Origin: an uncultured Pseudomonadota bacterium
GTDB lineage: Bacteria > Pseudomonadota > Alphaproteobacteria > Rs-D84
DNA: 64,000 bases
Direction: 5' to 3'
Assembly: GCA_949298405.1 (NCBI GenBank)
Contig: CASFWA010000001.1
Location: 231-64,230 of the forward strand
In this document: one piece after another, positions 444 to 19,000 of the stretch
Position numbering within the stretch: position 1 is the stretch's first letter
Layout of the letters: each line of letters begins with the position of its first letter
Position numbers and translations under genes: made by a program
The notes under the pieces: model-generated
What the model was told of the DNA's origin: nothing
Seen by the model: the letters and a program-made list of their open reading frames with translations, nothing else
Database searches by the model: none

Positions 444-1355
444 CTAAAAACGGTACATAAAGCCTATTTTTACCATAGGATAGAATTTTAACTTATCCAA
501 CTCGTCCTGAGCATCTGCCAGCGCATCGCGCTTTGCTTGCTCAAATTCGGCTATACCGTTTAACTCCACTTTTTCCCAACCAGAACCATTCCATTTCTGC
601 AAATTGTCTGTCGGTAAATCTAAACCAAGTTGCGCAGTCTTATTTGTAAACACTACGCCCGCATCCATATATATCTTCAGTCCTGCAAACAGTCCCAAAT
701 CAAACCCCGCACCTAAATAAGGCCCGCGATAATTCCAGTCGGCATTGGCCGTTCCATGAATCTGATTCCCAATATATTTATAATCTGTACCATTCAATTC
801 AAATGCAAACTCAGAATCTGGCAACCCGTCAACACTACCTGTTAAATTTGCTTCTAAATTTAATTTTCCAAAGTAATAACCACCTGAAATCCTTATTCCG
901 CCAAGAAACCAAGTATCACCAAACGGATAAAAATCTACTAATGCCGCAATATGTTGACCTTTGATATTTCCGTCTTTTATTTTTAAACCGTCACCTAAAT
1001 CAATGCCTTCATCCCCCATAACAGCATCAACCCCAGAATTTATCATGGACTTTACTGGTTCGGTACTAGCAAAATCTAAACGGAACCCAAGCCGCTTCCA
1101 CCAAAACGAATCGAAGTTTTTATTTGCATATCCCACAAAACCATTTAGCCCACTAGTTGCAGACACACCTACACCAAGTTGCAAACCATGTGGGAATTTT
1201 ATATCCGGATTTACGATTTCTTTTTCTGAAGAAACAGAAACTGCACTTTCTGTATTTGAAGTCGCTTCAACTTTTTCTTCTGGCAGCCCAGCCTCTTCTG
1301 CAACCGCAGGCATTACCAATGTTGCCAATATAGCAAAAACAGAAATTTTTTTCAT
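444..1355 (-). CDS. Outer membrane beta-barrel protein (porin/OmpA-like), exported
   Basis: N-terminal signal peptide (MKKISVFAILATLVMPAVA), alternating amphipathic strands and a C-terminal aromatic ending ...FMYRF typical of OMPs. Start moved to the MKK Met inside the track ORF. Confidence 0.6.
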   Translation of the reverse strand: MKKISVFAILATLVMPAVAEEAGLPEEKVEATSNTESAVSVSSEKEIVNPDIKFPHGLQLGVGVSATSGLNGFVGYANKNFDSFWWKRLGFRLDFASTEPVKSMINSGVDAVMGDEGIDLGDGLKIKDGNIKGQHIAALVDFYPFGDTWFLGGIRISGGYYFGKLNLEANLTGSVDGLPDSEFAFELNGTDYKYIGNQIHGTANADWNYRGPYLGAGFDLGLFAGLKIYMDAGVVFTNKTAQLGLDLPTDNLQKWNGSGWEKVELNGIAEFEQAKRDALADAQDELDKLKFYPMVKIGFMYRF

Positions 1356-1489
1356 ATTTTCCCCCATTAAAAATTTCTTTAACTCTTCTTTTACAAACTA
1401 TAACAGATTAAAGATTTTTATCTCAACCAAAAAAACAACTTAAATTTGTGTTCAAAACATCTGTTTTTTGTGATATTATTCAAAGTATG

Positions 1490-2800
1490 AAAAGCAGAAT
1501 TATTATTTTTTCGTCCCTGCTTTGTTTGTGTGGGACGACATCTGGTTTCGCATCAGAATGCATGGGGCCAGAATGCAATATAGAACCTATAAATATGCCA
1601 GTCATTTCTGAACCGACTGTTTTAGGAATGCCGCAAGCGGTTCCCGTTGTTGCTGAATATGCGCAGCCTGTGGAATATGTTTATGCACAGCAAATCCCTA
1701 TGCGGGAAGTGAAATTACTGTCTATCAAACCAGTACCCGAAGACACACGCCCACCTGTGTGGGACGGTACCGCAGGCGACTATGACCCACGTGGTTATGA
1801 TAAAACTGTCGATTGGCGTGACGGAGTTCCTATTTGGGACGATTCCATATCAAGTTATAAATATAAAGATTTTACAGATTGGTTCTTGCAACCAATGACA
1901 GAAGTTTATATTCGTGACGCAAGCGATGTTCAAACAATGCCTGTTGCACAACAACAACCAACTGTACAACAAGAAAACATTGATGTAATGGCACTATATC
2001 GCCAGAACATGGCCGACGCTGCCGCAACACGCGCACGCGTAGAAGAATTGCTATCCCCACAAAAACCTTCTGGAAATCTATGGGGATGCGCGGACGAAAA
2101 TGTGACAGAAACTGTTTCTGAAAAAATTGAATTGCCTGCACCGAAACCAGAATATGTGGCACAAGACCTAACAGAAGTTGTCAAGGTCACTTTCGGTCGT
2201 ACAGACGGATGTCCTTTTGAAACAGAAACAGAATGCGAAATATGGCGCAGGAAACCAATTGTTATCGAAACAGTTTCCCCACGTAGCCCCAAGATTCGTG
2301 CAGACAAAATGAACGAATTTATAAACGCGGCACGTTGCAACAATGAAATCACAGCAAATGAAGCTGTTTCGGCCCCTCTGTTGGAACGTTATAAAATACT
2401 TATGAAGTCCGCACAAGCTTGCTGCACAGACGGTATGGCTTACGCGCTTAAAAAAGCAGGTGCAACAGATGGTCTGGTTTACAAATTCTTGGCAGATGAT
2501 GCAAACTTCTATGGGTTCGGCGCGCGTTGCCTTATGACAACAGACGAAGAACTAGATACAAAATATCCAAATACTTCTACTGCAGCAGTTGTAGCAGATG
2601 TTAGAAACGGATGTTTATGCCGCGGTCGCCAATGGTTCGAAGCAATGCTGGCACCTTTTAAAGATGTTTATAAAGCATTGCCAGAATTTGCGAACGAAAA
2701 GTTCTACTACACTTACACCGATGGTTTGCAGCGCGAAATAACAGTATCTGTAAACAACGATGTTCAGAATGTGTTGAACCAACTAGAACGGTGTCCGTAA
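1490..2800 (+). CDS. Hypothetical exported Cys-containing protein
   Basis: ORF with a signal-peptide-like N-terminus (MKSRIIIFSSLLCLCGTTSGFA) and many Cys; no recognisable family. Followed by a terminator hairpin at 2821-2846. Confidence 0.5.
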   Translation, partial: KSRIIIFSSLLCLCGTTSGFASECMGPECNIEPINMPVISEPTVLGMPQAVPVVAEYAQPVEYVYAQQIPMREVKLLSIKPVPEDTRPPVWDGTAGDYDPRGYDKTVDWRDGVPIWDDSISSYKYKDFTDWFLQPMTEVYIRDASDVQTMPVAQQQPTVQQENIDVMALYRQNMADAAATRARVEELLSPQKPSGNLWGCADENVTETVSEKIELPAPKPEYVAQDLTEVVKVTFGRTDGCPFETETECEIWRRKPIVIETVSPRSPKIRADKMNEFINAARCNNEITANEAVSAPLLERYKILMKSAQACCTDGMAYALKKAGATDGLVYKFLADDANFYGFGARCLMTTDEELDTKYPNTSTAAVVADVRNGCLCRGRQWFEAMLAPFKDVYKALPEFANEKFYYTYTDGLQREITVSVNNDVQNVLNQLERCP

Positions 2801-2870: not shown

Positions 2871-2897
2871 AAAAAAACGCGTCTAGGCGCGTTTTTA
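2871..2897. terminator. Palindromic hairpin AAAACGCG-TCTAG-GCGCGTTTTT, bidirectional terminator
   Basis: Perfect palindrome with an A-run 5' and a T-run 3'; lies at the 3' end of the minus-strand gene 2895-3665. Confidence 0.6.
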
Positions 2898-3665
2898 TCT
2901 TTGTTGTGTATTTGTATTTTGTCGCGATTTATTTTGCTGGTCTTCTATTGCCTGCATAACTGCGATATTTAATGCATACGCACAGTTATTTACCGCATCA
3001 CGTTGTGCCGACAAATTAGTACACGCCTCTGGTTTTGTATATTTATTGTTATTAGCATCATATAAAACCCCGCTAATAGAATACGCCCTGGCAAATTCTA
3101 AATCTTTCTGCAACTGACGATATGCTTCACCAATATTACCCGCACTTACTGCCTGCAAAACTATACGAATATTATTCTGTATACAAGACAAACCATCTGA
3201 TGTACTAGATTTTAACAAACAATTTTCAGCACCTATTAATACAACATTTCTATCGCTGGAAGCAGAACTGCTTGAAGAAGACGAACTTGGTGCACCTGCG
3301 GCCTCTAATTGCGCAGTTAAAACCGCTTTCTGCAACTGGGTTTTAAAACGGCTTATTGTCGCCTCTAAAAAGTCATATTGCTTCTTTAACTGCTGCGTCA
3401 TTATAGTTGTCTTTAATGCAACCACATCACGCATTAATTGTTTATCAGAATCATTAGTCGGATTAGATACCAACCCAATATTATAAACGTGTGTACTGCA
3501 TAATGCCAATTCTGGCGTTATACGGTCATTATTATCATCACCGCAACCATTATCTGTTGCAGAATACGCAGGTAATGTAAACATCAATGCACTAATTATG
3601 CCCCCAAACGCAAGCGCACGTCCCGCATCAGAAAACACAGAAAAGATGTTTTTTATCGACTTCAT
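2895..3665 (-). CDS. Exported hypothetical protein with coiled-coil and poly-Ser tract (Cys-rich family member)
   Basis: Signal-like N-terminus, SSSSSSSSASS run and Cys pairs. Start codon directly abuts the stop of the upstream 3666-5852 gene. Confidence 0.5.
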   Translation of the reverse strand: MKSIKNIFSVFSDAGRALAFGGIISALMFTLPAYSATDNGCGDDNNDRITPELALCSTHVYNIGLVSNPTNDSDKQLMRDVVALKTTIMTQQLKKQYDFLEATISRFKTQLQKAVLTAQLEAAGAPSSSSSSSSASSDRNVVLIGAENCLLKSSTSDGLSCIQNNIRIVLQAVSAGNIGEAYRQLQKDLEFARAYSISGVLYDANNNKYTKPEACTNLSAQRDAVNNCAYALNIAVMQAIEDQQNKSRQNTNTQQR

Positions 3666-5825
3666 TTACTTCAAAAGACCCTCTAATAAATTTGTAGAAC
3701 TACCTACAGAAAATATACCGCCACTAATTATACCATTCTGGCACCCATATCCCAATGTATAACTTAATACTTTAGAACCACACATGCATTCATCTGCGTT
3801 CATTATACCACCTGCAGCTTCACATGCATCCTTATCAAAATCCCAAACACGAGAAACCGAAGTTGTAGCAACAGAAGAATTACTTGTCATAATCTCGCAA
3901 GTTCTTTTTATATTTTCATCCGATATTCCACTGCAATCACAAGTTGATGTAGCGCTATTCCACTTTGCACCATAAGAAGAATTATCTTCACAAATTTCTC
4001 TTATTAAGCCACCAGAATTTGTGAAATACTTAGTGTCCTCTGCTGATTCGCCCTTAGAATTTACGCACATAGCACGTTCATAATCAAATGTAGAATACTC
4101 ACCACCACCTGGACAAGTGCATTCACCTTCCCCGTTCTTAGCATCTTTTGCAGGTACCCATTGAGAATTCTTACTTAAACTATTATCACATACACACTTA
4201 AGGTAATTATAACCTTGCAAAGCAGAACATTTCATCATTACGCTTTGTGTGCTTGCGCCAGTATCACCTTGGGCAATCTTACCGTCAGAAGTATATAATC
4301 TTTCTAAATCATCATCACGAACACAAACTCTATCTGGCAACTGCTTTAAACTTGCATACTTTTGTAAATCTTGAAATGTTGTAGCATTCACTGCGCAATA
4401 TTTTACACCATCTGGGTCTGCACTTTTATTCTGTCCAAACCGATTGCCACCAAATACAGCAGGTGCATCCTGTTCTATCATACGTTGCAAGACTTCTATG
4501 TCAATAGATGCCTGCTTCTTACGATTACGGAACAACGCGGAATTATCCAATGCTTCTGATGCGCAACCTACGCGAACTTGTACACCATCAACTGTTCCCA
4601 TTTCTGGATATAACCAATTCCTTTGAACTTCTGCTTCATCTGTCAACATCTTTATCAACTGACAACCACCATCTGACATAGGAACGACTTGCCCGACTTC
4701 GCACTGCGCGCCACCACGAACAGCACCTTCTGCAGTTGCAACAGATACAGACCTACCGTTTACACAATTAGTTCCATTATAATGCATTACTTGCCCAGGC
4801 CCGCATAAATACTGTCCCCAAACATTGCAAGTACCATTCAGCATCATATAAATATCTGTTATATCAACCCCGACAGATTGCGCCAAAATCAATGCGTCAT
4901 ACAGCTCATCTAAAACGTTATTATATGGTTCAAAGAAATTCATCGCTTTTTGCTTGAACGTCTTTACACGTTTCGGTCCTGTACAATTATTTCCAGTTGT
5001 ATCACAACCTGCATATTCAAATGCAGTATTCATTGCCGCTTTTACCTCTTTTAAAGCGACTTCTGCATTTTCTATTTTTGATAAAATTTGCCCTGAAATC
5101 TGTTCGCGCGCAATAACATCCGCAGAAACACCCGAAGCCGCAGCAACACTTTGTGCAGTGGTCAGACCACCAGATTCTGAATTATTTGATGCTGTTGTAG
5201 AAGTTGAAGCCGATGTACTTGGTTGTGCGGTATTAGTATTAGCCTGTGCAATTGCCTGGGCAGTTAACTGTTTCTGTTCTTCCAATGCGGCCTGTAATTG
5301 CGCTGTGGTTTCCGCGTTTTGCTGCTGCATTTGTGTTTGCATTTGCTGCATCTGAGCCTGCATTTGTTGCAACTGTTGTGCACTTTGCTGTGCCGCCGCC
5401 TGAGCCGCAGCAACCTGCGCATCAGCGGCCTGCTGATTTGCTTTTGCTGTGGAATTCGCCACTATCTGTGCAGAAATATATTCTATTAAATCGTCGCCGT
5501 ATTCTTTACAGGATTCATTAGATTCAACACACCCCGCAACAATAGGACGCGCAATTTCCAATGTTGTACAACCACCTGTCGCACACTTTGGTTGTGCACA
5601 ACGCAATATAAGCGCATTACAATTACCAAAATCTGCCGCTGGCGCGTTTGCCATACTATTCGAACGAGCATTTACAAAATTATTCCAAACATTATTATTT
5701 ATCGACCCCGATGTCGGATTATACGCAGTCAAATTACTGCCCGCCGTAGTTGCAACAGGTGCAGAAATAGCATCTGAAGACACTAATGCTAAAGCAACTA
5801 GCAAAAATCTGGATATATTCTTCAT
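3666..5825 (-). CDS. Large exported Cys-rich protein with N-terminal 6-Cys module, Q/A-rich coiled-coil and S/T-rich linker
   Basis: Signal peptide (MKNISRFLLVALALVSS), module C-x6-C-x4-C-x4-C-x12-C-x5-C at about nt 5490-5630, and a QQMQAQMQQMQTQMQQQ tract encoded by CTG/CAG-rich DNA at 5270-5450. Confidence 0.55.
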   Translation of the reverse strand: MKNISRFLLVALALVSSDAISAPVATTAGSNLTAYNPTSGSINNNVWNNFVNARSNSMANAPAADFGNCNALILRCAQPKCATGGCTTLEIARPIVAGCVESNESCKEYGDDLIEYISAQIVANSTAKANQQAADAQVAAAQAAAQQSAQQLQQMQAQMQQMQTQMQQQNAETTAQLQAALEEQKQLTAQAIAQANTNTAQPSTSASTSTTASNNSESGGLTTAQSVAAASGVSADVIAREQISGQILSKIENAEVALKEVKAAMNTAFEYAGCDTTGNNCTGPKRVKTFKQKAMNFFEPYNNVLDELYDALILAQSVGVDITDIYMMLNGTCNVWGQYLCGPGQVMHYNGTNCVNGRSVSVATAEGAVRGGAQCEVGQVVPMSDGGCQLIKMLTDEAEVQRNWLYPEMGTVDGVQVRVGCASEALDNSALFRNRKKQASIDIEVLQRMIEQDAPAVFGGNRFGQNKSADPDGVKYCAVNATTFQDLQKYASLKQLPDRVCVRDDDLERLYTSDGKIAQGDTGASTQSVMMKCSALQGYNYLKCVCDNSLSKNSQWVPAKDAKNGEGECTCPGGGEYSTFDYERAMCVNSKGESAEDTKYFTNSGGLIREICEDNSSYGAKWNSATSTCDCSGISDENIKRTCEIMTSNSSVATTSVSRVWDFDKDACEAAGGIMNADECMCGSKVLSYTLGYGCQNGIISGGIFSVGSSTNLLEGLLK

Positions 5826-5925
5826 ATTCTCTCTTAAAATCAATTTTAGCATAAAAAATATGCTCTGAAAAGATAAAAATCACGCAACAAACCCAATACA
5901 CAACAAAATTATCCTTAAAAATAAT

Positions 5926-7737
5926 TTGACAAAATATCTTTTTGTATATACCATTGTTTGCATGATTATACAAGATGGCGTTCTTTCTGATGCAAATATT
6001 AAAGACCTTGATTCCGATGGTGCTTTGCACATTCCGGAAGGTGTACAAATTGTCGCTTCTGACATTTTAACAAACTGCCCTAAATTAAAAGCAATATATT
6101 TTCCAGAAAGTGTAAAAAAAATTTTTGACAACGCCTTCAACGACAACAAAAACCTAGAAACTATTTATTTCGGAGAAAACACAAAAAGACTTTCTTCTGA
6201 ATCTTTTAGCGGATGTGACAATATAAAATTTATAAAAGTAGCCAGAAAGTGGAAAGGAAATTTCATAAACTTTTTCTTTTACACCTGTAATAACTTACAA
6301 AAAATAATTAGAAAAAATACCGATGGCGCGCTTGTCGAATATGAAATATACAATTTTAAAACTCATACTTTTTTAAAAAAGAGCCAACATAACATCGGTG
6401 ACACAGAAGTTGCCACAGTCCAAAACATATCTTTTGACGGCGATAAAATAAATGGGGATACTTTTTATATTATAAAAACCCCAAAAATAGGTGTTATGGA
6501 AGTGTCTTTGGAAAAAGCACTTAAACGCGCAAAACAACTTTTAATAATCAAGGAATTTAAACGACAAATATGGTTGGCAAAAACAAAAAACAATATTACA
6601 GATGATTCTTTAAATATTGAAACCATATTAGTTTCTGCATTAGATAAAACACTGACAACTAATAAAATATCTTTAAAAAAGAATAATTATATTTTAATCA
6701 AAGGCTTTTTTAAAAATTTACCTAAATATATCAAATATATATCTTTGATGCAGAAAAAATATCCAAACGCAAAACAAAATCTAGACGAATTGACAGATGT
6801 CTGCTTGGAAGACTTAATTAAAATTATTACCCCAAAAAGAAAGTCATTAAATAAATCTTGTACACACCTACTAAAAAAACACCCTGTTTCTAACAAAGAA
6901 ATGCAAAACATGGTTTCCATAGGGTTCAAAAACCCAGGTGCTTTTCCTGTTTCTTGGCTACGCAATCTTCCCAAAGAAAAATATGGGGATGCTACAAAAA
7001 AACTACACAACCTATTAAAAAACGCAGCATCAAAAATGTATTCCACTTCTGTTAAAAGCATATTTCCAGAAGAAATGGAAAAACTTGCAAAAAATATAAC
7101 AAAAATTATAAAGCAACACATAGAAATACAATACCTATCAGCGGGCCACTTTTCAAAAACTTACACTCTGCAAATACCTGGTGATAAAAAATACGTATGG
7201 AAAATATATCATTGTGATAATGGGTACAACTATATGTCTTCTTGGGGACACGACACAGAATTACAAAATTCTTTCTTATTATCTGGGAAAAAATATACAG
7301 GCAATATAAAATTTAGAAAAATATCTACGGCTGGTATTAGTAATCAACGTGGTGAAATATATTTAATTTACCCATTTACAGAAGACATACCAAAACAAAT
7401 AAATATTCAGACCAAATATATAAAATTTAAACGCGCCGTTGTATATGATGAAAATATTATTAGTAATTGTATAAATCGTACTTTTATAGACTTGGGTTCT
7501 ATTCATATAAATCAAGAAAGATGGTACCAACCGCTTCCTATTAGAAAAATTGCAAACACAATTTTATACCATTCTTGGAAAGAACTTTCTTATGTACTGA
7601 CAAATTATTCTTCGGACCAAATAAAATCCGCCACAGATTTTATAGAAAGAAACATGTCAAAAGAACTTATAACAGAAGGCATACTTAATAAAAAAATAAA
7701 TTATCTAAAAATAGAACTACAAAAACGAATAAGATAA
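5926..7737 (+). CDS. BspA-type leucine-rich-repeat protein with long N/K-rich C-terminal region; no signal peptide (candidate secreted effector)
   Basis: N-terminal about 110 aa show the BspA-like LRR pattern (ILTNCPKLKAIYFPESVKKIFDNAFNDNKNLETIYFGENTKRL...CDNIKFI). Gene is markedly AT-richer than its neighbours. Track start is TTG; an in-frame ATG lies at 5962. Confidence 0.5.
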   Translation: MTKYLFVYTIVCMIIQDGVLSDANIKDLDSDGALHIPEGVQIVASDILTNCPKLKAIYFPESVKKIFDNAFNDNKNLETIYFGENTKRLSSESFSGCDNIKFIKVARKWKGNFINFFFYTCNNLQKIIRKNTDGALVEYEIYNFKTHTFLKKSQHNIGDTEVATVQNISFDGDKINGDTFYIIKTPKIGVMEVSLEKALKRAKQLLIIKEFKRQIWLAKTKNNITDDSLNIETILVSALDKTLTTNKISLKKNNYILIKGFFKNLPKYIKYISLMQKKYPNAKQNLDELTDVCLEDLIKIITPKRKSLNKSCTHLLKKHPVSNKEMQNMVSIGFKNPGAFPVSWLRNLPKEKYGDATKKLHNLLKNAASKMYSTSVKSIFPEEMEKLAKNITKIIKQHIEIQYLSAGHFSKTYTLQIPGDKKYVWKIYHCDNGYNYMSSWGHDTELQNSFLLSGKKYTGNIKFRKISTAGISNQRGEIYLIYPFTEDIPKQINIQTKYIKFKRAVVYDENIISNCINRTFIDLGSIHINQERWYQPLPIRKIANTILYHSWKELSYVLTNYSSDQIKSATDFIERNMSKELITEGILNKKINYLKIELQKRIR

Positions 7738-7748
7738 AGCACAAATAA

Positions 7749-7778
7749 AAAGAAACGCCCAAACGGGCGCTTCTTTAT
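7749..7778. terminator. Bidirectional terminator hairpin (AGAAACGCCC-AAAC-GGGCGCTTCTTT)
   Basis: Long stem with one mismatch between convergent genes (LRR gene + and 1052-aa gene -). Confidence 0.6.
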
Positions 7779-10700
7779 TCCATACTGGTGCTAATTATAT
7801 CACCATACATACCAACCTCGTCTGCACCTATATAGCAGCGGATGTGCTTACCAACACTATCCATCCATTCGTTATATGCCGCTTTTTCTGCAGAATCCAA
7901 ATTAGTATCTTGGATATCACGAGTCAACTTATTTACAATCAATGTACCAACAACACCCGACGCAACTGCACCGCCTAAGTTAATCAAAGAACGAGTTCTA
8001 TTTTCTTTTGTTGCATCTGCATTTTGTGTTGTATTAGCACTGCCTGCTGCAACACTTACTGCGTTTTTCAAAGAATCCAATTCATTATTCGCCGCAGTTT
8101 TTGCTGCTGTCTTGGCCGCAGTATCAACAGTATTGTCGTCTTTTACAAACGAGCCAGCCGCTGTTGTCACTGCCTTGCGTGCAGAATCAATATTTGCAGA
8201 AGCAGCCTTTGCATTCGTTGCCAAAGTGATTAATGCTTCACCATATGTCAGCGCTTTTGCTCCATCTGTTTCTGCTTTATAAAAAGCCAAGATTCTGTCA
8301 TATTCTTCTGTTACATTTTGTGTATTAACTGTGTTTGCACTAGCAGATTTAGAACTTGAATTGCCTATTAAACCACCCAAGAAATCGCCATCTTGCATTG
8401 AATCAAACAAGTATCCACCACCAATTGCAGAACCTAGACCACCCAATACAGTCAACCATGTACGTGTACGTTTTTGTGACTCCGCTTTGTCTTCTACACT
8501 TTCTGCAGCAATAGCATTACCGATTTCTTCCAGCGCACTTGATGGTATCCAACTGCCACAAGTAAATGTATCACCTGCTGCAAAGTATGCATTTGACCAA
8601 TCACTACCTTCACGTATAGCATCCTGAATATTCTTATCATCAGACTGAATTGTTATACGGATACGGCAGAACGAACCATACAAATCATTACTTGCAACGA
8701 AATCCTTGGTTTCCAAACCTGCAACACTATAATTTGTAGGAACTTTGTTGTTTTTCAACTTTACCCACATATATGTACTGCCCATATCTTTGTTACCGAC
8801 AATACCACCCGCATTGCTGGACATACACATATTCTGTTGCTTTGTCAGTTTCGCATTGTACTTTGCCTGCGCTTCCATTTCCAAATCCGCAATTAAATCA
8901 CGGAAGATTTGTCTTTCAGCCAAATTCTGTGCATATGTTGTCTGAGAAACCATCTTTGGATATATATACTGACCACTGGCATCGTCACAACGACCTGTCA
9001 CACCATCACCGTTATCAGCGGTTGTACACAACAGATTTCCATCTGCATCAATATCCTGAACTTCCGCTGTAATGCTGTAATTACCAGCATCTAACCAACC
9101 TTCACGAACAGTCGTAATACCACTGCCCCATGAATTTGCTGTATAAGATGAATTTGCAGAACTACGCGCCATTTCAGCTTTGATATGTTCTTCACATACA
9201 CTATTATTCTTTACTGTATTCAAGCACAATCCCAAAACAATTGTATGATCTAAAACACCGCCAACTTTATTCATACTGCTATCAAAACTATCATTACCTG
9301 TATTCGTCAGAGTTGAATATATATCTGTACGATTGCGATAACAATTCTGATAATCTGTACCACACATAGACTTTACACAACTTGTCGCAATAGATTGACA
9401 CTGCTTCTTCATCTGGTCTAATGCAGATTGATTATAAGAAGTAGACAAACTTGCATTCAATGTTGCAACCGCACCAACCGGGTCAGGATTTGACGCATCC
9501 ACATCATCTGGCGCAGTAAACAACTTGTCAAATATGCTATTTTCTTCAAATATCAAAGCACCAGTCACACTATCGAATGTAGCCGCTGCATACTGGCAAG
9601 CAGTATCATTATTTACAACCGCTTCACACCCCATTTTTATACCTTCCATTGTAGAAGGATTTGTGACACCTTTTACCTTATTTGCACTATTAAATGCAGA
9701 CGCATAACACGCCGCGCCACTTCCTTCACCACAAGTACGCATAGCACAAGAAACAATTGTTTCCGAGCAACGTTCTTTTACTTTTTTATCGAATTGCGCA
9801 ATTAAATCGTCAATCTTTGCACGCATAGAATCATTCATACGCGAAGAATATGCTTCTGAATAAATTGCATCTTTATTATCTTCATCACGCAACTGAGAAT
9901 TTGTCGGCATAACACCATTGCTTAAAAATGTTGCATAGCAATATTTGTTGGCACCAATTGTATCCAAACAAGCATTCTTCAAGAATCCAGAAACTTCGCT
10001 ACGACTAACAGTTGTCTGAACCAAATCACTTGTAGATGTGCTTACCAATGTGCCATCTGTGCTATTTACATTTTCTACATATTTTATAATTTCCTGAGAA
10101 CTACCTTCCTTGCACTTATAAGGATTTGACGCACACGCGTTCAAGAAACATTGGTCAACAACCTTATAGCAAGTAGACACCGCATTTACTGCCGCCAACG
10201 CCGCACCTTCTGAAATCATAATACCGATACGGCTGTTGCTTGTAGGATTCGCAGAAGTATTTGTAGAACCAAATAATTCATTCAACCCATCATCCTGGCA
10301 GCGTGCTAATGTTGATTCACAGAATAATTTCTGCTTTTTGAATTCTGTATTGCTTGTGCACAATTCAAAGTCTGTACCACAAACATCTTCTTTCTTTAAA
10401 CAGTTTGTATATCTTCTGACACAGTCACTTGTATCCAAACGATTGCTAATGGACGCGGCCTCAATCAACTGACCCAAAACACTGCCATCTGTTGGGTAAA
10501 CATATTCACCATCAGAATTCTTATTCGTAAACAATGTCTGATTGCTTGTACCAAACAAAGAATTCACACCAGATGTGCTACATTGCAACAAGGTACTTGC
10601 ACACAATGGACGTTTCGAAAAGAACAATGTTTTGTTTGTACATTCTTCAAAATTAGCACCACAAACATCAGAACCCTTTAAGCAACTTGTATATGCTTCG

Positions 10701-10888
10701 ATACATTCTGCGTTTGCCAGCAACGACGATGTTGTCGAAGATGTACTGCCACTTGTAATATAAGCAGTCATCGTTGGCATACGTGAAGACGCAGTACCTA
10801 TTACACTAGGACGCGCCGTCAATGCAAAAGCCGCCGGAACAACGCCGAAAGCAGCCATAAATCCCATTGTTTTTTTCAGAAGACTCAT
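7775..10888 (-). CDS. Very large exported Cys-rich protein with tandemly duplicated 6-Cys module, helical A/T/K-rich region and C-terminal hydrophobic segment
   Basis: Start placed at the MSLLKK Met preceded by GGAGTGAG (RBS-like). Signal peptide present. The module C-x6-C-x6-C-x6-C-x12-C-x6-C occurs twice (aa about 75-130 and 169-224). Confidence 0.55.
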   Translation of the reverse strand: MSLLKKTMGFMAAFGVVPAAFALTARPSVIGTASSRMPTMTAYITSGSTSSTTSSLLANAECIEAYTSCLKGSDVCGANFEECTNKTLFFSKRPLCASTLLQCSTSGVNSLFGTSNQTLFTNKNSDGEYVYPTDGSVLGQLIEAASISNRLDTSDCVRRYTNCLKKEDVCGTDFELCTSNTEFKKQKLFCESTLARCQDDGLNELFGSTNTSANPTSNSRIGIMISEGAALAAVNAVSTCYKVVDQCFLNACASNPYKCKEGSSQEIIKYVENVNSTDGTLVSTSTSDLVQTTVSRSEVSGFLKNACLDTIGANKYCYATFLSNGVMPTNSQLRDEDNKDAIYSEAYSSRMNDSMRAKIDDLIAQFDKKVKERCSETIVSCAMRTCGEGSGAACYASAFNSANKVKGVTNPSTMEGIKMGCEAVVNNDTACQYAAATFDSVTGALIFEENSIFDKLFTAPDDVDASNPDPVGAVATLNASLSTSYNQSALDQMKKQCQSIATSCVKSMCGTDYQNCYRNRTDIYSTLTNTGNDSFDSSMNKVGGVLDHTIVLGLCLNTVKNNSVCEEHIKAEMARSSANSSYTANSWGSGITTVREGWLDAGNYSITAEVQDIDADGNLLCTTADNGDGVTGRCDDASGQYIYPKMVSQTTYAQNLAERQIFRDLIADLEMEAQAKYNAKLTKQQNMCMSSNAGGIVGNKDMGSTYMWVKLKNNKVPTNYSVAGLETKDFVASNDLYGSFCRIRITIQSDDKNIQDAIREGSDWSNAYFAAGDTFTCGSWIPSSALEEIGNAIAAESVEDKAESQKRTRTWLTVLGGLGSAIGGGYLFDSMQDGDFLGGLIGNSSSKSASANTVNTQNVTEEYDRILAFYKAETDGAKALTYGEALITLATNAKAASANIDSARKAVTTAAGSFVKDDNTVDTAAKTAAKTAANNELDSLKNAVSVAAGSANTTQNADATKENRTRSLINLGGAVASGVVGTLIVNKLTRDIQDTNLDSAEKAAYNEWMDSVGKHIRCYIGADEVGMYGDIISTSME
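10261..10711 (-). repeat. Intragenic tandem duplication (about 282-nt period) encoding two copies of a 6-Cys module
   Basis: Two about 56-aa segments align with identical Cys spacing (ECIEAYTSCLKGSDVCGANFEECT... / DCVRRYTNCLKKEDVCGTDFELCT...). The duplication is also visible as similar antisense ORF translations at 10236-10472 and 10542-10763. Confidence 0.7.
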
Positions 10889-10981
10889 TAGACTCACTCC
10901 ATACTTATTATTTAAGTATAACATAAAATACATTTTTGATAAAGAAAAATATACGCAAAAATAAATACTTTTAACAAATTT

Positions 10982-11008
10982 AAAAGGGGCTTTTGCCCCC
11001 CTTTTTCA
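10982..11008. terminator. Hairpin AAGGGGC-TTTT-GCCCCCC with T-run; terminator for rluD (-)
   Basis: GC stem flanked by A/T runs just 3' of the rluD stop. Confidence 0.55.
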
Positions 11009-13004: not shown

Positions 13005-14327
13005 TTATTCCAAATTCAACTTTCTATATTTCGCACTAACTGTCTTTTGTATATCTTTTATCGCATTCATATAGTCGGATACTGTGGCATTACTATTTGC
13101 AGAAACCGCACTAAATATTCTTCCAGACTCTGTATTTTTCCCGTTTTCTTCATAAGTCGCCATAACCGCCATACGATTTAAATCTTCAAATTCTACATCT
13201 AAAAAATTTGCAACCCCCAATTTTACATCCCAGTAATAATTAGGATTAATCGAATCTTCTATTCTATTATAAACAACCAGACGAGGAGTAATAGACCCAG
13301 CAAAACCAACCGTGACATACATTGTATCTATACGTCCTGATGTCATATCAATAGACTTATTAACCTTTAAAACAACAGGCTCATTATCATATGTATACGA
13401 TGAAAAACCACCCAAAGTCATATTAGAAACCCATAAATCATCAGTTGTAAAACTAGAAAACTTCGCGGTATCATCTAAACTTAACACGCCAGAAACTTCC
13501 ATAGTTCTGGAATCCGCAGACATAATGCCAGACACAGTTGCACTTGCCGTCTCGAAAGATTTATCTATTGTTGTTCTATTTTCAAAAATCGTATTATTTG
13601 CAACCGCAACCCCCAAAGTCAATGTTTCATCAAACTGTGCACCAGAAGCATTAAAGAAAGACGTATTTATAATATCATGCCCACCTAAATTTAACCCCGA
13701 TAGCATTGTCGCATCAGACGGATTTTCTGACGGGACCCGCCACAAATATAATGCATTGTCACGATTAACAGATGTTGTTTCTACGATACCACCAGAAACA
13801 GTTAAACCTAAATCAACAGTATCAATATGCCAAGCACCAAACGTACCATATGCACGATTACCTTCGATAAACCCCATAGAATCCCCACCAAGCGCAACTA
13901 TTTCACGTGTTCTAAGCGGTGAAATTTCATCAGAATTAAAAACTATAACTCCCTGCAAGGTGGCTTTGTCATCAAGGTCATTAGACTTTAAGATTCTTAA
14001 TTGATAGTTATCTGCTGACGCTTCAACCAAATCAGCCGACACACCATAATCTACCAAATCCGCTAAATTAACTCTTGTGATATTTCTACCAACTGTATTT
14101 AATAAAGTTTCGCGATTATCAAGAATATAACGTTCCAGCGCAGTCTGTATATTCCCCATCTGATTTGTTATTGCTATATTCTCTGCACGTAATGCAGCAT
14201 TTTTCTGATATTTGAAAATAAACGGCATTACTATTGCTGCCAATGCGACACTCATCAGCAACTCTATCAACATACTACCCTGTTGCATATCGTTGTTTCT
14301 GAAAAAAATCTCTTTTCTTTTCTTCAT
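13005..14327 (-). CDS. Giant pilin/pseudopilin-like protein, paralog 1 (class III signal G|SMLIE)
   Basis: N-terminus ...QQG-SMLIELLMSVALAAIVMPF with Glu at +5 and a hydrophobic helix. The start at the MKKRK Met forms an ATGA overlap with the upstream gene stop. Shares a central LxxLNLGG motif with paralogs 2 and 3. Confidence 0.6.
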   Translation of the reverse strand: MKKRKEIFFRNNDMQQGSMLIELLMSVALAAIVMPFIFKYQKNAALRAENIAITNQMGNIQTALERYILDNRETLLNTVGRNITRVNLADLVDYGVSADLVEASADNYQLRILKSNDLDDKATLQGVIVFNSDEISPLRTREIVALGGDSMGFIEGNRAYGTFGAWHIDTVDLGLTVSGGIVETTSVNRDNALYLWRVPSENPSDATMLSGLNLGGHDIINTSFFNASGAQFDETLTLGVAVANNTIFENRTTIDKSFETASATVSGIMSADSRTMEVSGVLSLDDTAKFSSFTTDDLWVSNMTLGGFSSYTYDNEPVVLKVNKSIDMTSGRIDTMYVTVGFAGSITPRLVVYNRIEDSINPNYYWDVKLGVANFLDVEFEDLNRMAVMATYEENGKNTESGRIFSAVSANSNATVSDYMNAIKDIQKTVSAKYRKLNLE

Positions 14328-15526
14328 CTGACTTCCTTTGGCATAGCAGACTGCCATCCCTTAGACAATATTACTTTAAACGATTCTTTTGATGGCGCAG
14401 ACGGTTTTTCAGCACGACTTAATGTCAAAGATGCAAATCGTGGAGGCGTAAGCGACGGGAACACCCACGAGCCTATTTTTAGCGGTGCGGTTGTAGACAT
14501 CAATAATTCGCCAGATATTGTTAACCCAAAATTATCATAAAAAACTATTTCTTCTGTTGAAACATAAGATGTTGTCACAGAATGCGCCGCAATACCAGTA
14601 AAAGCACTTATCGTCCTAGATGTATCAGACTTTAAATTTAAATTATTTGCAATATTTACAGAATTATTTACTGTCGCCCTATCTGTAATTATACGCCCCT
14701 TGGTAGTATATTTATTTCCATTTAATGAATTAGCATATATATTTCGAAACCCAGATATATCACCAGTCACACGCAAACTACCTAAATATGCAGTATCCCC
14801 ATAAAGATTGGCACCAGAAGAAAAATAAATCGTATTAGATAATAAACTACCACTTTCAATAAACGAAGTAGACGCATTCTTTATTTCTGCTGATTTTGCT
14901 ATTACCCCACCAACACCAAAGACATTTTTGTCATCCATATTTAAATCACGCAACATCATATTTAATTTGTCTTCACCATTAGTTGTACGGTGTAAATATT
15001 TTGATTTGTCTTCCCCTTCTATATCACGCGATATACGATATATTAAATCCCCTTCTTTAAAATCCGGCGCAGCAACCGCCCATGTATCACCATATGCAAC
15101 CCCGTCAATTCCAACTACTGCCGCATCCATACCTATATGCTTTGCAACTTGCATTGTGCGCAAATCGCTTTCATCTAAATCAAAAGACAAATAAACATCT
15201 GTAACTGTCGCACCATTTACATAATACTTATCAATAAATCCTGTTGACGGTAATTCCGATATCTCATCTAATTCTTCATCAGACAACTTTATCTGCGCAA
15301 TATCTGGCCAACTCGCCTGATTTAACCTTACATAATTTAAAACATCATCGCGCAAAGATATTATCTTTTTCGCCTCTACCATATCTCGTAAAGAATTATT
15401 TGTTTCACTAATCTGACTGTATAAAAACGGGGTTGCCATAGCAACAATAGCCATAGCCAGTAAAACTTCTAGCATACTGGAACCATGTTCAGATTCTAAA
15501 AATTTCTTTGTTTTATAAACAGCCAC
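14324..15526 (-). CDS. Giant pilin/pseudopilin-like protein, paralog 2 (class III signal G|SSMLE)
   Basis: N-terminus ...EHG-SSMLEVLLAMAIVAMATPF with Glu at +5. Central motif LRDLNMDD..VFGVGG. Overlaps the upstream gene by 14 nt. Confidence 0.6.
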   Translation of the reverse strand: MAVYKTKKFLESEHGSSMLEVLLAMAIVAMATPFLYSQISETNNSLRDMVEAKKIISLRDDVLNYVRLNQASWPDIAQIKLSDEELDEISELPSTGFIDKYYVNGATVTDVYLSFDLDESDLRTMQVAKHIGMDAAVVGIDGVAYGDTWAVAAPDFKEGDLIYRISRDIEGEDKSKYLHRTTNGEDKLNMMLRDLNMDDKNVFGVGGVIAKSAEIKNASTSFIESGSLLSNTIYFSSGANLYGDTAYLGSLRVTGDISGFRNIYANSLNGNKYTTKGRIITDRATVNNSVNIANNLNLKSDTSRTISAFTGIAAHSVTTSYVSTEEIVFYDNFGLTISGELLMSTTAPLKIGSWVFPSLTPPRFASLTLSRAEKPSAPSKESFKVILSKGWQSAMPKEVR

Positions 15527-16868
15527 TTTTACCTTCCAACAAACACTGCTTTATGTCTATTCTTTTCTCTAATCTTTGCCAAAATACATACTGGCAAATT
15601 ATATATTGTGATAAAGACTTCTGATTATAACGACCTTCTAAATCTGTTATTATTGATTTGCAATCAACTGTTTTTCCATCGTCTGACGAAGGTTTATCAA
15701 TAATAGCAAAAACAGAATTATCAACTGAATCCAATAACGCATCCGGCAAAACAGATGTCCCAGCAGGCCTGATATCTAAAACAACAGCACCTGTTTCACC
15801 CCTATTTAACGCATCAGATGTTTGGTCACGCATCGTGATATTCGATGCAGCAATATACCCCGTTTCTATTCCACTTCTAGAACTATATAGTAGATTATCT
15901 GGATCAATATAAACGTCTTGTCCACGCGACACATTTATAAAAGAATCAACCTCAAGTCTTTCTAAACTAAAATTGATATTATCCGTAATAACATCACCAC
16001 CAACATTCCATTTTGTCGGTCCATAAAAACTATTTTTACCTGCACTCATTGCAAAATCATATACAGACGCAGAAAACGATTCAAAATTCCCCGTATCACC
16101 AAATTTAGAAATAGTCTTTGCATTCACAGAATTAACGAACAAAGTACCACGCGTGACGGACAAAGCAGCCTCGCCTGATTGACTTTGAAATACCGCTTTT
16201 TCAGAAGCCATTACTTCTATTTCATTTTTTGTTTTACGACCGTTTTCTTCCCCGAACAAAGATAATGTACCAAATTGCCCAGTTTCAAACTCACCACGTC
16301 TTGCAAAAACATCCCCCGCATTATTAAAAACAAAACCTCCCATATTCAAATCAGTCAAAAACGCACTATTATCTAAATTCTTTTCATTCCTTTTTACAAC
16401 ATCAGAATAAACTTCATTTAAAGCCAAGCCGACTATCACCCTGTCGCCTTCGGCCGCTGCATAAAAACCTATTCTACGAACAAGTTCCGCAATCTGAATC
16501 CCCGATAAATCACCACCCGTCAATTCAAGATACGCACTTACTTGTGTAGCATCTTTATTTATAACCAAAGCAATATCCTGCCCAAGTGCTGTACGCGGGA
16601 CAAAACCTAATGGCAAACCATATGGTTCTAGCAAATCGGCAAAAGCGTTGCCAGAAATTACAGTCGTATTATAAGGTAAATCATTAGCACGTTCGCGAAT
16701 AAAAATTCGTGCCGCAGTCTGTGCAGTTTCTACCTTTCGCGTAGAAGAATACATCTGCGCATCCACATCCCTTGAACTTAACCGTTGCGCAAAAAATGGG
16801 ATAAAAGAAAACATTAATGTCAATGCTAACAAAGCTTGTAATAAAAAATTTCCACTTTGTTTTTGCAC
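15513..16868 (-). CDS. Giant pilin/pseudopilin-like protein, paralog 3 (atypical leader G|NFLLQ)
   Basis: N-terminus MQKQSG-NFLLQALLALTLMFSFIPFF with Gln instead of Glu at +5. Central motif LTDLNMGGFVFNNAGDVF shared with paralogs. First gene of the operon. Confidence 0.55.
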   Translation of the reverse strand: MQKQSGNFLLQALLALTLMFSFIPFFAQRLSSRDVDAQMYSSTRKVETAQTAARIFIRERANDLPYNTTVISGNAFADLLEPYGLPLGFVPRTALGQDIALVINKDATQVSAYLELTGGDLSGIQIAELVRRIGFYAAAEGDRVIVGLALNEVYSDVVKRNEKNLDNSAFLTDLNMGGFVFNNAGDVFARRGEFETGQFGTLSLFGEENGRKTKNEIEVMASEKAVFQSQSGEAALSVTRGTLFVNSVNAKTISKFGDTGNFESFSASVYDFAMSAGKNSFYGPTKWNVGGDVITDNINFSLERLEVDSFINVSRGQDVYIDPDNLLYSSRSGIETGYIAASNITMRDQTSDALNRGETGAVVLDIRPAGTSVLPDALLDSVDNSVFAIIDKPSSDDGKTVDCKSIITDLEGRYNQKSLSQYIICQYVFWQRLEKRIDIKQCLLEGKSGCL

Positions 16869-17439: not shown

Positions 17440-18984
17440 ATGAGTAGTAATTACACTGTTTTAGCCCGCAAATATCGCAGTCAGGATTTTAATTCTCTTA
17501 TAGGTCAGGAAGTTTTAGTAAAAACTTTAACTACTGCAATTAATACGGGGCGTATTGCACACGCTTATATTTTTACTGGCATTCGTGGTACAGGTAAAAC
17601 AAGTACCGCAAGAATTCTGGCAAAGGCGTTAAACTGTTTGTCTTCTGACGGTCCTACTGCAACACCATGCGGAAAATGTGAAAACTGTAAGGCAATTACA
17701 GCAGGTCAACATATTGACGTTCTTGAAATTGACGCCGCTTCACATACCGGTGTTGACAATATGCGCGATATATTAGATGCTGCACAATACAGACCAACAA
17801 ATGGCAGATACAAAATATATATTATCGACGAAGTACACATGCTTTCTATCCCGGCGTTTAACGCATTACTAAAAACGTTGGAAGAACCACCTGCTCATGT
17901 AATCTTTATTCTGGCAACAACAGAAATCAGAAAAATTCCTGTCACAATATTATCGCGCTGTCAAAGATTTGACCTTGTTCGCGTTCCTGTTGAAACACTT
18001 AAAAAACATTTTGCATGGATTGCAGAACAAGAAAAAATCGAACTATCTGATGGCGCAAACGAATTATTAGCACGCGCAGCAGACGGTTCTGTACGCGATG
18101 GACTGTCATTATTAGACCAAGCAATCGCTCAGACAGGCGGGAAGGTAGATGAAAAAGCCGTTTTAAATATGTTAAAACGCGCTGACCGCGGTGTTGTTGT
18201 CGATTTTATGAAAATATTGCTATCTGGTGATACTGCTGCGGCACTTGAAAAAGCAGATGAAATTTATACTAACGGCGCAGATTTATCCATGCTATTAAGC
18301 GATATGATGGAATGGACACATTGGGCAACACGTATGCATCCTGCTTTACATGCGGGCGATATACAAAACTCTCCGTACACAATTGACCAACGCGAACAAA
18401 TAAAAGAAATTAATTCTAAGGTTTCTTTAAATACTCTTTCACGCATTTGGCAAGTAATGGTTGCCGCCGTTCCTGAAATGCAGGCCGCAGGCAATCAAAA
18501 ACAATGTTTTGATATGTTGGTCGTCAGATTGATGCATATTGCAGATATGCCTTCAATTCCTGAAATACTAAAAAAACAAGAAAGCATAAAGCAGTCTGCT
18601 GAACCTAAAACTTCCAAACCTTTACCGGATGCACCGGTTGCAGATAAACCTAAAATTTCTTCAGCATCTGAATTAGCAACCGCACTACAAAGTTCAAAAG
18701 AAATATTACTATACTCTTATTATAGCAGTAATATAGAAATCGTAGAGTTTTCTGACGGAAAAATAAAATACTTTGATAGAAAAGGTGATTTAGATTTTAC
18801 ACAAAAATTATCCACTTGGTTATCTGAAAAAACAGGTCATCCTTGGATTCTTGAAAGACAAATGGAATCAACGCATACACAAACCGTCACAGAACAAAAA
18901 CAAGAAGAACTTGAAGCAGACCCCATGGTCGCAAGTGCTATGAGTCTTTTTGAAGACGCAGAAATTGTCGGCGTGTCAAAATAA
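17440..18984 (+). CDS. dnaX: DNA polymerase III subunit tau (and possibly gamma)
   Basis: AAA+ clamp-loader motifs (GIRGTGKTS, CxxCxxC zinc module, DEVHML, SRC-motif TILSRCQRF). Confidence 0.9.
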   Translation: MSSNYTVLARKYRSQDFNSLIGQEVLVKTLTTAINTGRIAHAYIFTGIRGTGKTSTARILAKALNCLSSDGPTATPCGKCENCKAITAGQHIDVLEIDAASHTGVDNMRDILDAAQYRPTNGRYKIYIIDEVHMLSIPAFNALLKTLEEPPAHVIFILATTEIRKIPVTILSRCQRFDLVRVPVETLKKHFAWIAEQEKIELSDGANELLARAADGSVRDGLSLLDQAIAQTGGKVDEKAVLNMLKRADRGVVVDFMKILLSGDTAAALEKADEIYTNGADLSMLLSDMMEWTHWATRMHPALHAGDIQNSPYTIDQREQIKEINSKVSLNTLSRIWQVMVAAVPEMQAAGNQKQCFDMLVVRLMHIADMPSIPEILKKQESIKQSAEPKTSKPLPDAPVADKPKISSASELATALQSSKEILLYSYYSSNIEIVEFSDGKIKYFDRKGDLDFTQKLSTWLSEKTGHPWILERQMESTHTQTVTEQKQEELEADPMVASAMSLFEDAEIVGVSK

Positions 18985-19000
18985 ACACAAGGATAAAAAA

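Follow-up and report, generated by a model that had tools for sequence, protein, structure and literature searches.

We analysed a stretch of 64,000 nucleotides (nt) from an uncultured member of the Alphaproteobacteria, Rs-D84 (GCA_949298405.1, contig CASFWA010000001.1, positions 231-64,230; hereafter, the window), which encodes two large cysteine-rich proteins of 1052 and 728 amino acids (aa), denoted p1052 and p728. The repeat of p1052 represents a strongly constrained, previously undescribed family of Cys-rich helical units and, in our assessment, the balance tilts somewhat in favor of p1052 being a lineage-specific, Sec-exported envelope or surface protein, a rigid scaffold made of five repeats with the architecture of disulfide-stapled hairpins. 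What p728 shares with p1052 is the architecture only, namely, Cys spacing and predicted topology. The p1052 gene and its parts, with the evidence for each, are as follows.

7775-10933, minus strand: gene of p1052, the 1052-aa Cys-rich protein (open reading frame (ORF) list; >900 full-length homologs)
10820-10888, minus strand: Sec-type signal peptide of p1052, aa 16-38, ...PAAFA/LTARPSV (N-terminal hydrophobic stretch)
10460-10729, minus strand: repeat unit 1, aa 69-158, holding module M1 (Cys pattern, hhalign, AlphaFold2 (AF2))
10580-10705, minus strand: the Cys of M1, aa 77, 84, 91, 98, 111 and 118, spacing 6-6-6-12-6
10211-10447, minus strand: repeat unit 2, aa 163-241, holding module M2 (Cys pattern, hhalign, single M2-like module of distant relatives)
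10298-10423, minus strand: the Cys of M2, aa 171, 178, 185, 192, 205 and 212, spacing 6-6-6-12-6
9938-10171, minus strand: module M3, aa 255-332, C-x6-C-x4-C-x6-C ... C-x9-C (Cys pattern, invariance, predicted helical)
9596-9769, minus strand: module M4, aa 389-446, C-x6-C-x4-C-x7-C ... C-x9-C (Cys pattern, invariance, predicted helical)
9194-9400, minus strand: module M5, aa 512-580, C-x6-C-x4-C-x6-C ... C-x9-C (Cys pattern, invariance)
8534-9076, minus strand: strand-rich conserved region, aa 620-800, with five more invariant Cys and one long helix (conservation, AF2)
7934-8458, minus strand: putative C-terminal anchor region, with Gly-rich hydrophobic segments at aa 826-845 and 982-1000 (hydropathy, conservation profile)

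An earlier note on this DNA, made from the sequence alone, had pointed to two adjacent segments of p1052 with the common pattern C-x6-C-x6-C-x6-C-x12-C-x6-C and interpreted them as a tandem duplication. Both the Cys positions and the nucleotide coordinates given for these segments are correct, and the duplication itself is strongly supported. Comparison of the family sub-alignments of M1 and M2 with hhalign yields a probability of 99.6% (E = 1.9e-23); the wider units (aa 69-158 and 163-241) align over 79 columns, with an 11-aa indel, at E = 5.9e-24; and, when the Cys are held fixed, the similarity of the remaining columns is far above that of shuffled columns (z = 8.6). By these comparisons, M1 and M2 are a genuine, old tandem duplication of a roughly 90-aa unit. 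The near-identity at the DNA level that the same note had claimed is not found: the modules are identical in 26 of 56 amino acids (46%) and in 56% of the nucleotides, and their antisense-frame translations are just 21-42% identical and contain stop codons. Because the two copies are too diverged, a DNA repeat finder run on the window failed to detect the duplication, which has a spacing of 282 nt. Among the 189 full-length members of the p1052 family, 158 contain two copies and 27 a single copy. The distant full-length relatives all have one, M2-like module, followed by M3-M5, which suggests that the tandem duplication is clade-specific and that M2 is the copy of the ancestral type. The ancestral protein would then have combined a single M2-type module with M3-M5, and the duplication would have occurred within the clade of the source genome.

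Apart from M1 and M2, p1052 contains three extra six-Cys units, M3, M4 and M5, which the earlier note overlooked and in which a long insert precedes the C-x9-C pair. In 120 homologs with 51-99% identity to p1052, each of its 36 Cys shows a conservation of 99-100%. M5 and the M2-type module can be aligned in register over the first half of M5 (hhalign E values of 3.7e-4 and 5.2e-4, probability 31-36%), with the common pattern CxxxxxxC-LK/VK-..-CG-D/F..C; on the strength of this alignment, the five units plausibly comprise a single diverged repeat family. These additional units are located within p1052, and no further copies were found in the real genes of the window by regular expressions and hidden Markov models (HMMs) applied to all six-frame ORFs. 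One hit was spurious: pattern scans of this region can be misled by a Cys-rich ORF (4852-5352, plus strand) that is antisense to the Gln/Ala-rich region of p728 and satisfies relaxed Cys regular expressions.

Comparison with the known protein families was uniformly negative. In Pfam and NCBIfam, the Cys regions have no match even at E up to 10 (the Pfam limits were E up to 1 for the whole of p1052 and up to 10 for aa 40-520; for p728, only low-complexity matches appeared). Sequence and profile searches against PDB recovered only low-complexity helical noise, Foldseek searches against PDB and BFVD returned no match at E <= 0.001, and no pertinent publication on Cx6C helical motifs in bacteria came up in a literature search. 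The absence of a well-known domain, such as EGF or TNFR, was accordingly borne out in Pfam, NCBIfam, PDB and Foldseek. The knottin or EGF-like fold that the earlier note had offered as one outcome to check for is not what AF2 predicts; the modules are modeled as all-helical which, together with the lack of a Pfam match, excludes domains of the EGF, TNFR and knottin types.

The phyletic spread of the family is narrow. The p1052 protein is 99% identical to P0001 and to locus L004, and the window as a whole has 99% identity to the L004 contig, which belongs to an uncultured Alphaproteobacteria metagenome-assembled genome (MAG). A scan of species-representative genomes yielded 216 loci with p1052 relatives; among the 80 of these that were listed, nearly all bear the labels of MAGs of gut Alphaproteobacteria ("Rickettsiales" or Candidatus Enterousia), one of which is a circular genome of 958 kb. 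When 1.84 billion cluster representatives (50% identity) were searched exhaustively with HMMER, only 263 matches at E <= 0.001 were obtained, and the best 150 of the 263 all look like p1052 relatives or fragments; the full-length relatives that are distant appear as hypothetical proteins in MAGs of Alphaproteobacteria and "Rickettsiales". Judging from these searches, the family is confined to a gut Alphaproteobacteria MAG lineage with reduced genomes. The novel family that had been proposed for this one genome is therefore real but not peculiar to it. The protein itself displays all the features that define the family, namely, full-length similarity, the 36 invariant Cys, and M3-M5 preceded by an M2-type module. 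Members of Ca. Enterousia (order Rs-D84) are reported to have genomes under 1 Mb with about 850-1000 genes and to lack respiratory chains and most of the metabolite biosynthesis, and have been described as strict fermenters, with a partner-dependent lifestyle, as symbionts or parasites, suggested (PMC12306168).

Several features of the modules point to a specific fold. In the AF2 model, the p1052 modules are all-helical, with the predicted local distance difference test score (pLDDT) of 70-88, and the helices of the M1 repeat span aa 69-86, 101-116 and 120-127 (pLDDT 71-79). When the six Cys of a module are numbered in order, the sum of positions C1+C6 equals C2+C5 in three modules: 195/195 for M1, 383/383 for M2 and 193/193 for the p728 module. 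Such a constant sum is a signature of an antiparallel hairpin. Mean-field direct-coupling analysis (DCA) of 242 module sequences, a set of about 140 effective sequences in which two paralog classes are mixed, identified the pair of positions 12 and 46 as the strongest (score 4.5, the next being 2.4), exactly on the C1+C6 = C2+C5 antidiagonal, and four of the seven top long-range pairs lie within 3 positions of this antidiagonal (p = 0.003). Furthermore, many single-copy relatives contain an extra Cys 12 residues before C1 and another one 21-26 residues after C6. The two are both present in 17 relatives and both absent in 6, with only 4 discordant cases (Fisher p = 0.0017), and such joint presence or absence is expected of an additional outer rung of a nested ladder.

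Taking into account the constant-sum register, the DCA signal and the paired gain and loss of Cys, we propose the connectivity C1-C6, C2-C5, C3-C4; both the formation of the disulfides and their pairing are inferred from these patterns. The module would then be an antiparallel helical hairpin with nested disulfides, a putative "twin Cx6C" unit. Cys seven residues apart would fall on one face of a helix, so that two antiparallel helices would be stapled by C1-C6 and C2-C5, whereas the third disulfide, C3-C4, would close the loop between them. The array of repeats would amount to a rigid rod or scaffold, resistant to proteases and held in a membrane by one or two of the C-terminal Gly-rich hydrophobic segments.

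Several observations weigh against this interpretation. The AF2 model of p1052 is of moderate quality (mean pLDDT 63.6, predicted template modelling score (pTM) 0.36), that of p728 is poorer (mean pLDDT 52.2, pTM 0.27), and the coupling analysis drew on the small, mixed sequence set indicated above. No homolog of known function was detected for p1052 or p728 in the searched family and structure databases. Of the two C-terminal segments that would serve as anchors, just the second one passes a simple transmembrane (hydropathy) threshold. Finally, the host lineage is reported to be devoid of respiratory chains (PMC12306168), and no Dsb or VKOR gene was found in the 64-kb window; in view of these two facts, oxidative folding of p1052 and p728 has to be assumed.

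These last points also bear on a different explanation for the conserved Cys, namely, that they are ligands of Zn or Fe-S clusters and that the modules are metal-binding or redox units. Invariant, regularly spaced Cys would be compatible with this possibility, as would the strictly fermentative metabolism, devoid of respiratory chains, that is reported for the host lineage (PMC12306168) and the absence of a Dsb gene from the 64-kb window. The modules, however, contain no CxxC or CxxxC ligand motifs and no conserved His, Asp or Glu partners next to the Cys; the signal peptides of p1052 and p728 are of the Sec type rather than the Tat type; and the heptad spacing of the Cys on the helices, along with the gain and loss of nested Cys pairs, fits disulfide staples. 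In addition, the exported proteins encoded in the window tend to contain even numbers of Cys. On balance, we consider metal binding to be quite improbable. The even counts, together with the Sec-type signals, lend indirect support to disulfides. This trend, which was assessed by a crude hydropathy call on the window ORFs and holds for most of the exported proteins, is exemplified by p1052 with 36 Cys, p728 with 30, and p256, an exported 256-aa protein encoded next to p728, with 6.

The closest architectural parallel to the predicted disulfide-stapled hairpin is provided by the CHCH proteins of the mitochondrial intermembrane space, such as Cox17 and the small Tims, which contain the twin Cx9C or Cx3C motifs and also are helix-loop-helix structures with nested disulfides. 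In CHCH proteins, each helix presents two Cys on the same face, and these pair across the antiparallel hairpin as two nested disulfides. The Cx6C of p1052 and p728, with its 7 residues or about two helical turns, is intermediate between Cx3C (one turn) and Cx9C (three turns), the arrangement being Cx6C...Cx6C in M1, M2 and the p728 module and Cx6C...Cx9C in M3-M5. Unlike the CHCH domain, the p1052 module has a predicted extra disulfide in the loop and a third helix, and its units are bacterial, Sec-exported and present as five repeats within a 1000-aa protein. The modules do not match the Pfam CHCH profile and lack the twin Cx9C/Cx3C motifs; the resemblance is one of architecture. Another parallel involves the Hcp proteins of Helicobacter and other Sel1-like repeat proteins, which are secreted, all-alpha bacterial repeat proteins implicated in host interaction, with each helix pair bridged by a disulfide. 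The Sel1 repeat, however, consists of about 36 aa with one disulfide, compared to 56-95 aa, six Cys and three predicted disulfides in the p1052 units, the Cys are spaced differently, and neither p1052 nor p728 showed a Sel1 or TPR-type Pfam match (E up to 1-10), so this affiliation was rejected. At the level of function, OmcB and OmcA of chlamydia come to mind, which likewise are Cys-rich envelope proteins exported by Gram-negative bacteria that depend on a host and have reduced genomes. No homology to these proteins was detected, and the analogy is purely functional; the regular spacing within the modules and the even Cys counts suggest intramolecular staples, unlike the intermolecular lattice of OmcB/OmcA.

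Outside the modules, several additional features of p1052 deserve mention. Given that the homolog consensus begins with MxLLKK, the likely start codon is M16 (nt 10888). Both p1052 and p728 possess Sec-type signal peptides, and no twin-arginine motif is visible in the signal peptide sequence of p1052. Of the "extracellular" label attached to the module in the earlier note, export is supported, but placement outside the cell is beyond what the evidence shows. Immediately behind the signal peptide of p1052, there is a motif, xARPS[VI]...(S)RMPTMT (aa 39-57, approximately nt 10763-10819, minus strand), located in a region that is disordered in the AF2 model (pLDDT about 30). The xARPS[VI] part is retained in 139 of the 189 full-length family members, including distant ones, and the motif might serve in sorting, processing or docking. 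At the opposite end of the protein, each of the two Gly-rich segments is preceded by RTR[TS] (KRTRTWLTVLGGLGSAIGGGYLF and NRTRSLINLGGAVASGVVGTLIV, within aa 822-1000), and this pair of segments resembles a glycine-zipper-like anchor that has been repeated internally. The segments are separated by an Ala/Thr-rich helical stretch, which is the least conserved part of the protein.

The second Cys-rich protein, p728, is encoded downstream of p1052 on the same strand, together with p256.

3666-5852, minus strand: gene of p728, the 728-aa Cys-rich protein (ORF list, homologs)
5508-5621, minus strand: N-terminal six-Cys module of p728, aa 78-115 (invariant in 120 homologs)
5013-5516, minus strand: Ala/Gln-rich region of p728, aa 113-280, with predicted long helices and an unstructured Ser/Thr-rich gap (AF2)
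3741-4229, minus strand: C-terminal C...CxC...C repeats of p728, aa 542-704 (copy number differs among homologs)
2895-3665, minus strand: gene of p256, an exported 256-aa protein, with the start codon abutting the p728 stop (ORF list)

The homolog consensus indicates M10 (nt 5825) as the likely start codon of p728. As the earlier note had reported, a six-Cys pattern follows the signal peptide; the last gap was given as x5 but is x6, and the Cys are found at aa 78, 85, 90, 95, 108 and 115 (C-x6-C-x4-C-x4-C-x12-C-x6-C). The spacing 6-4-4-12-6 is retained in 28 of the 29 neighboring homologs, and AF2 predicts helices at aa 75-90, 98-110 and from aa 113 onward. Among the 120 homologs of p728, the first 16 Cys are invariant and the following six are 98-99% conserved. 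The helices of the Ala/Gln-rich region, which attracts low-complexity noise in Pfam searches and has low pLDDT at aa 176-250, could form a coiled coil, judging from the model. The C-terminal four-Cys repeat, C-x11-16-C-x-C-x11-15-C, has no Pfam match, and its last unit is missing in about 85% of the homologs; variation in copy number of this kind is seen in exposed, fast-evolving heads. The layout of p728 would accordingly consist of an N-terminal hairpin, a coiled-coil stalk, a strongly conserved core and a variable head of Cys repeats. In locus L002 (14901-17306) and related loci, the CxC repeats are missing and the p728 core (aa 1-515) continues directly into a p256-like C-terminus as a single fused protein. 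This fusion and the abutting stop and start codons of the two genes suggest that p728 and p256 act as one unit, and p256 accompanies p728 in 30 of the 31 loci where the latter is present. Among 83 related loci, p728 and p256 follow p1052 in just 31, so the pair would constitute a separate, variably present exported protein.

The question remains how the N-terminal module of p728 is related to those of p1052, which the earlier note treated as a module common to the two proteins. If the p728 module were a very diverged but true homolog within a single domain family, one would expect similarities such as those that are indeed observed: three of the five Cys gaps (6, 12, 6) are equal to those of M1/M2, and the first half (6-4) resembles that of M3-M5; the constant-sum register and the predicted succession of a helix, a Cys loop, a helix, a kink and another helix are common to the two proteins; the first Cys is located at aa 77 in p1052 and aa 78 in p728, in each case preceded by a signal peptide and then by a stretch that is conserved although disordered; and the genes are neighbors in 31 of the 83 loci. 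The best sequence signal of this kind is the in-register alignment of M4 with the p728 module (hhalign E = 0.005 over 17 columns). The rest of the comparisons yielded no support. In a Cys-anchored permutation, the non-Cys columns of the p728 module match those of M1 or M2 no better than shuffled ones (z = 0.26 and 0.53, p = 0.38 and 0.28); M1/M2 (E = 0.4-0.6) and the profile of 242 module sequences (E = 0.063) align with the p728 module out of register; and hhalign comparison of the entire p1052 and p728 families gives a probability of 1.5%. Reciprocal searches with the two family HMMs score below 9 bits, with the matches in the Ala/Gln-rich low-complexity helices, outside the Cys modules, and no intermediate spacing was seen among the 189 full-length p1052 relatives and 29 p728 relatives. 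With the non-Cys columns at chance level, the outcome that the earlier note itself had named as refuting, and the profiles failing, the claim of a common module is not supported; homology is doubtful, although it is the strongest among the alternatives considered here, and the independent, convergent origin of such a simple stapled hairpin is no less probable than distant kinship.

A different affinity of p728 is implied by the UniRef name of a protein that is 53% identical to it (P0226), "IncF plasmid conjugative transfer protein TraN". Under this reading, p728 would be a TraN-like protein that stabilizes mating pairs in a conjugation system; TraN, similarly to p728, is large, exported and rich in conserved Cys, and the window encodes a coupling protein of the VirD4/TraG type, located some 12 kb past p1052 (about 17 kb away from p728). 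However, neither p728 nor P0226 matches the Pfam TraN family at E up to 10, and tblastn searches with p728 and p1052 against 72,556 plasmids gave no match. The PDB sequence search and Foldseek search of PDB (E <= 0.001) with p728 were negative as well, with the caveats that the model is weak (pLDDT 52) and that the presence of a TraN target was unconfirmed. Moreover, p728 is surrounded by core chromosomal genes (RluD, DnaX, Lpt, OmpA, Skp), with no F-type transfer genes, and the coupling protein is the sole transfer-related one among the neighbors. Given that Pfam, the plasmid search and the genomic context all disagree with it, the TraN label on the p728 homolog was rejected as unsupported, and a role of this kind for p728 is extremely improbable. 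The coupling protein (type IV secretion system family; Pfam T4SS-DNA_transf, TraG-D_C, TrwB; 22494-24701, minus strand) is itself located amid housekeeping genes, and a gene of the same type also lies near the p1052 homolog in locus L001.

The genes discussed here are punctuated by three terminator-like hairpins.

10982-11003, minus strand: hairpin between the pseudouridine synthase gene (called RluD) and p1052
7749-7776, minus strand: strong hairpin with a 12-bp stem, overlapping the p1052 stop codon (7775-7777) and extending just downstream
2873-2896, minus strand: hairpin closing p256, which includes the final base of its stop codon

Because such hairpins flank p1052 on both sides, the gene is probably monocistronic, that is, a transcription unit of its own, as far as the sequence indicates; the hairpin at 2873-2896 closes the p728-p256 unit. 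Between p1052 and p728, there is a gene for a 603-aa BspA-type leucine-rich repeat protein (Pfam LRR_5; 5926-7737, plus strand), in a region with a GC content of about 31% compared to about 39% around it. Being found in only 18 of the 83 related loci, it looks like an inserted accessory gene.

Upstream of p1052 lie three consecutive genes for large prepilin-like proteins (450, 400 and 451 aa; 13005-16868, minus strand), with the N-termini G/SMLIE, G/SSMLE and GNFLLQ and no family match beyond weak ones for the N-terminal helix (GspI, ComG); a 169-aa pilin is encoded across the divergent DnaX gene (18950-19459, plus strand). It could be argued that p1052, on its own or together with p728, belongs to an upstream type IV pilus or pseudopilus apparatus, either as a component or as cargo, and might be a tip adhesin analogous to PilY1 or a secreted substrate. 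The gene order (three prepilin-like genes, a 175-aa Zn-ribbon/FxLYD gene, a 163-aa gene, RluD and p1052) is retained in 72-74 of the 83 loci, at 45-99% identity, and the upstream proteins have G/xxxxE prepilin motifs along with the weak GspI and ComG matches. Synteny, however, is generally high in small genomes, and the pilin block is not near p1052 in L071, L078 and L081 and is inverted in L080. Between the pilin genes and p1052, there are a housekeeping gene, RluD, and a terminator-like hairpin, and p1052 shows no PilY1, PilC or secretin-associated similarity in Pfam or NCBIfam. On balance, a link to the pilus appears unlikely, although less so than metal binding by the modules.

Another gene pair encodes an exported 450-aa Cys-rich protein with 12 Cys past the first 35 residues and no family match (1448-2800, plus strand) and an exported 307-aa protein without Cys (444-1367, minus strand). 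Members of this pair are found beside the p1052 locus in many relatives (43 and 31 of the 83 loci, respectively). The rest of the window is core chromosome (Lpt, OmpA, Skp, PQQ_2 of the BamB family, DnaX, IF-2, NusA, MutS, ParAB); as judged from its genes, the host is a Gram-negative bacterium with a double membrane.

Taken by itself, the module is one more lineage-restricted domain without an assigned role. Nevertheless, the definition of the repeat yields a domain model that is usable for a new Pfam-type family, the twin-Cx6C stapled hairpin is a concrete structural hypothesis, a bacterial analogue of the CHCH architecture, and the repeat poses the question of how a non-respiring anaerobe oxidizes dozens of periplasmic Cys. 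We infer that p1052 and p728 most likely play a structural or adhesive role on the cell surface of a gut bacterium that has a reduced genome and depends on partners. The lineage is uncultured and widespread in human and animal guts, and large conserved exported proteins without known homologs are prime candidates for the machinery of its partner-dependent lifestyle. A bolder proposition, which we regard as a long shot, is that p1052 and p728/p256 are the core of an undescribed attachment or nutrient-acquisition structure that exploits partner cells, possibly with the participation of the adjacent giant pseudopilins. If true, the 66 invariant exported Cys of p1052 and p728 would also imply an unrecognized route of oxidative folding, in a lineage that is reported to lack respiratory chains and quinone-linked Dsb.

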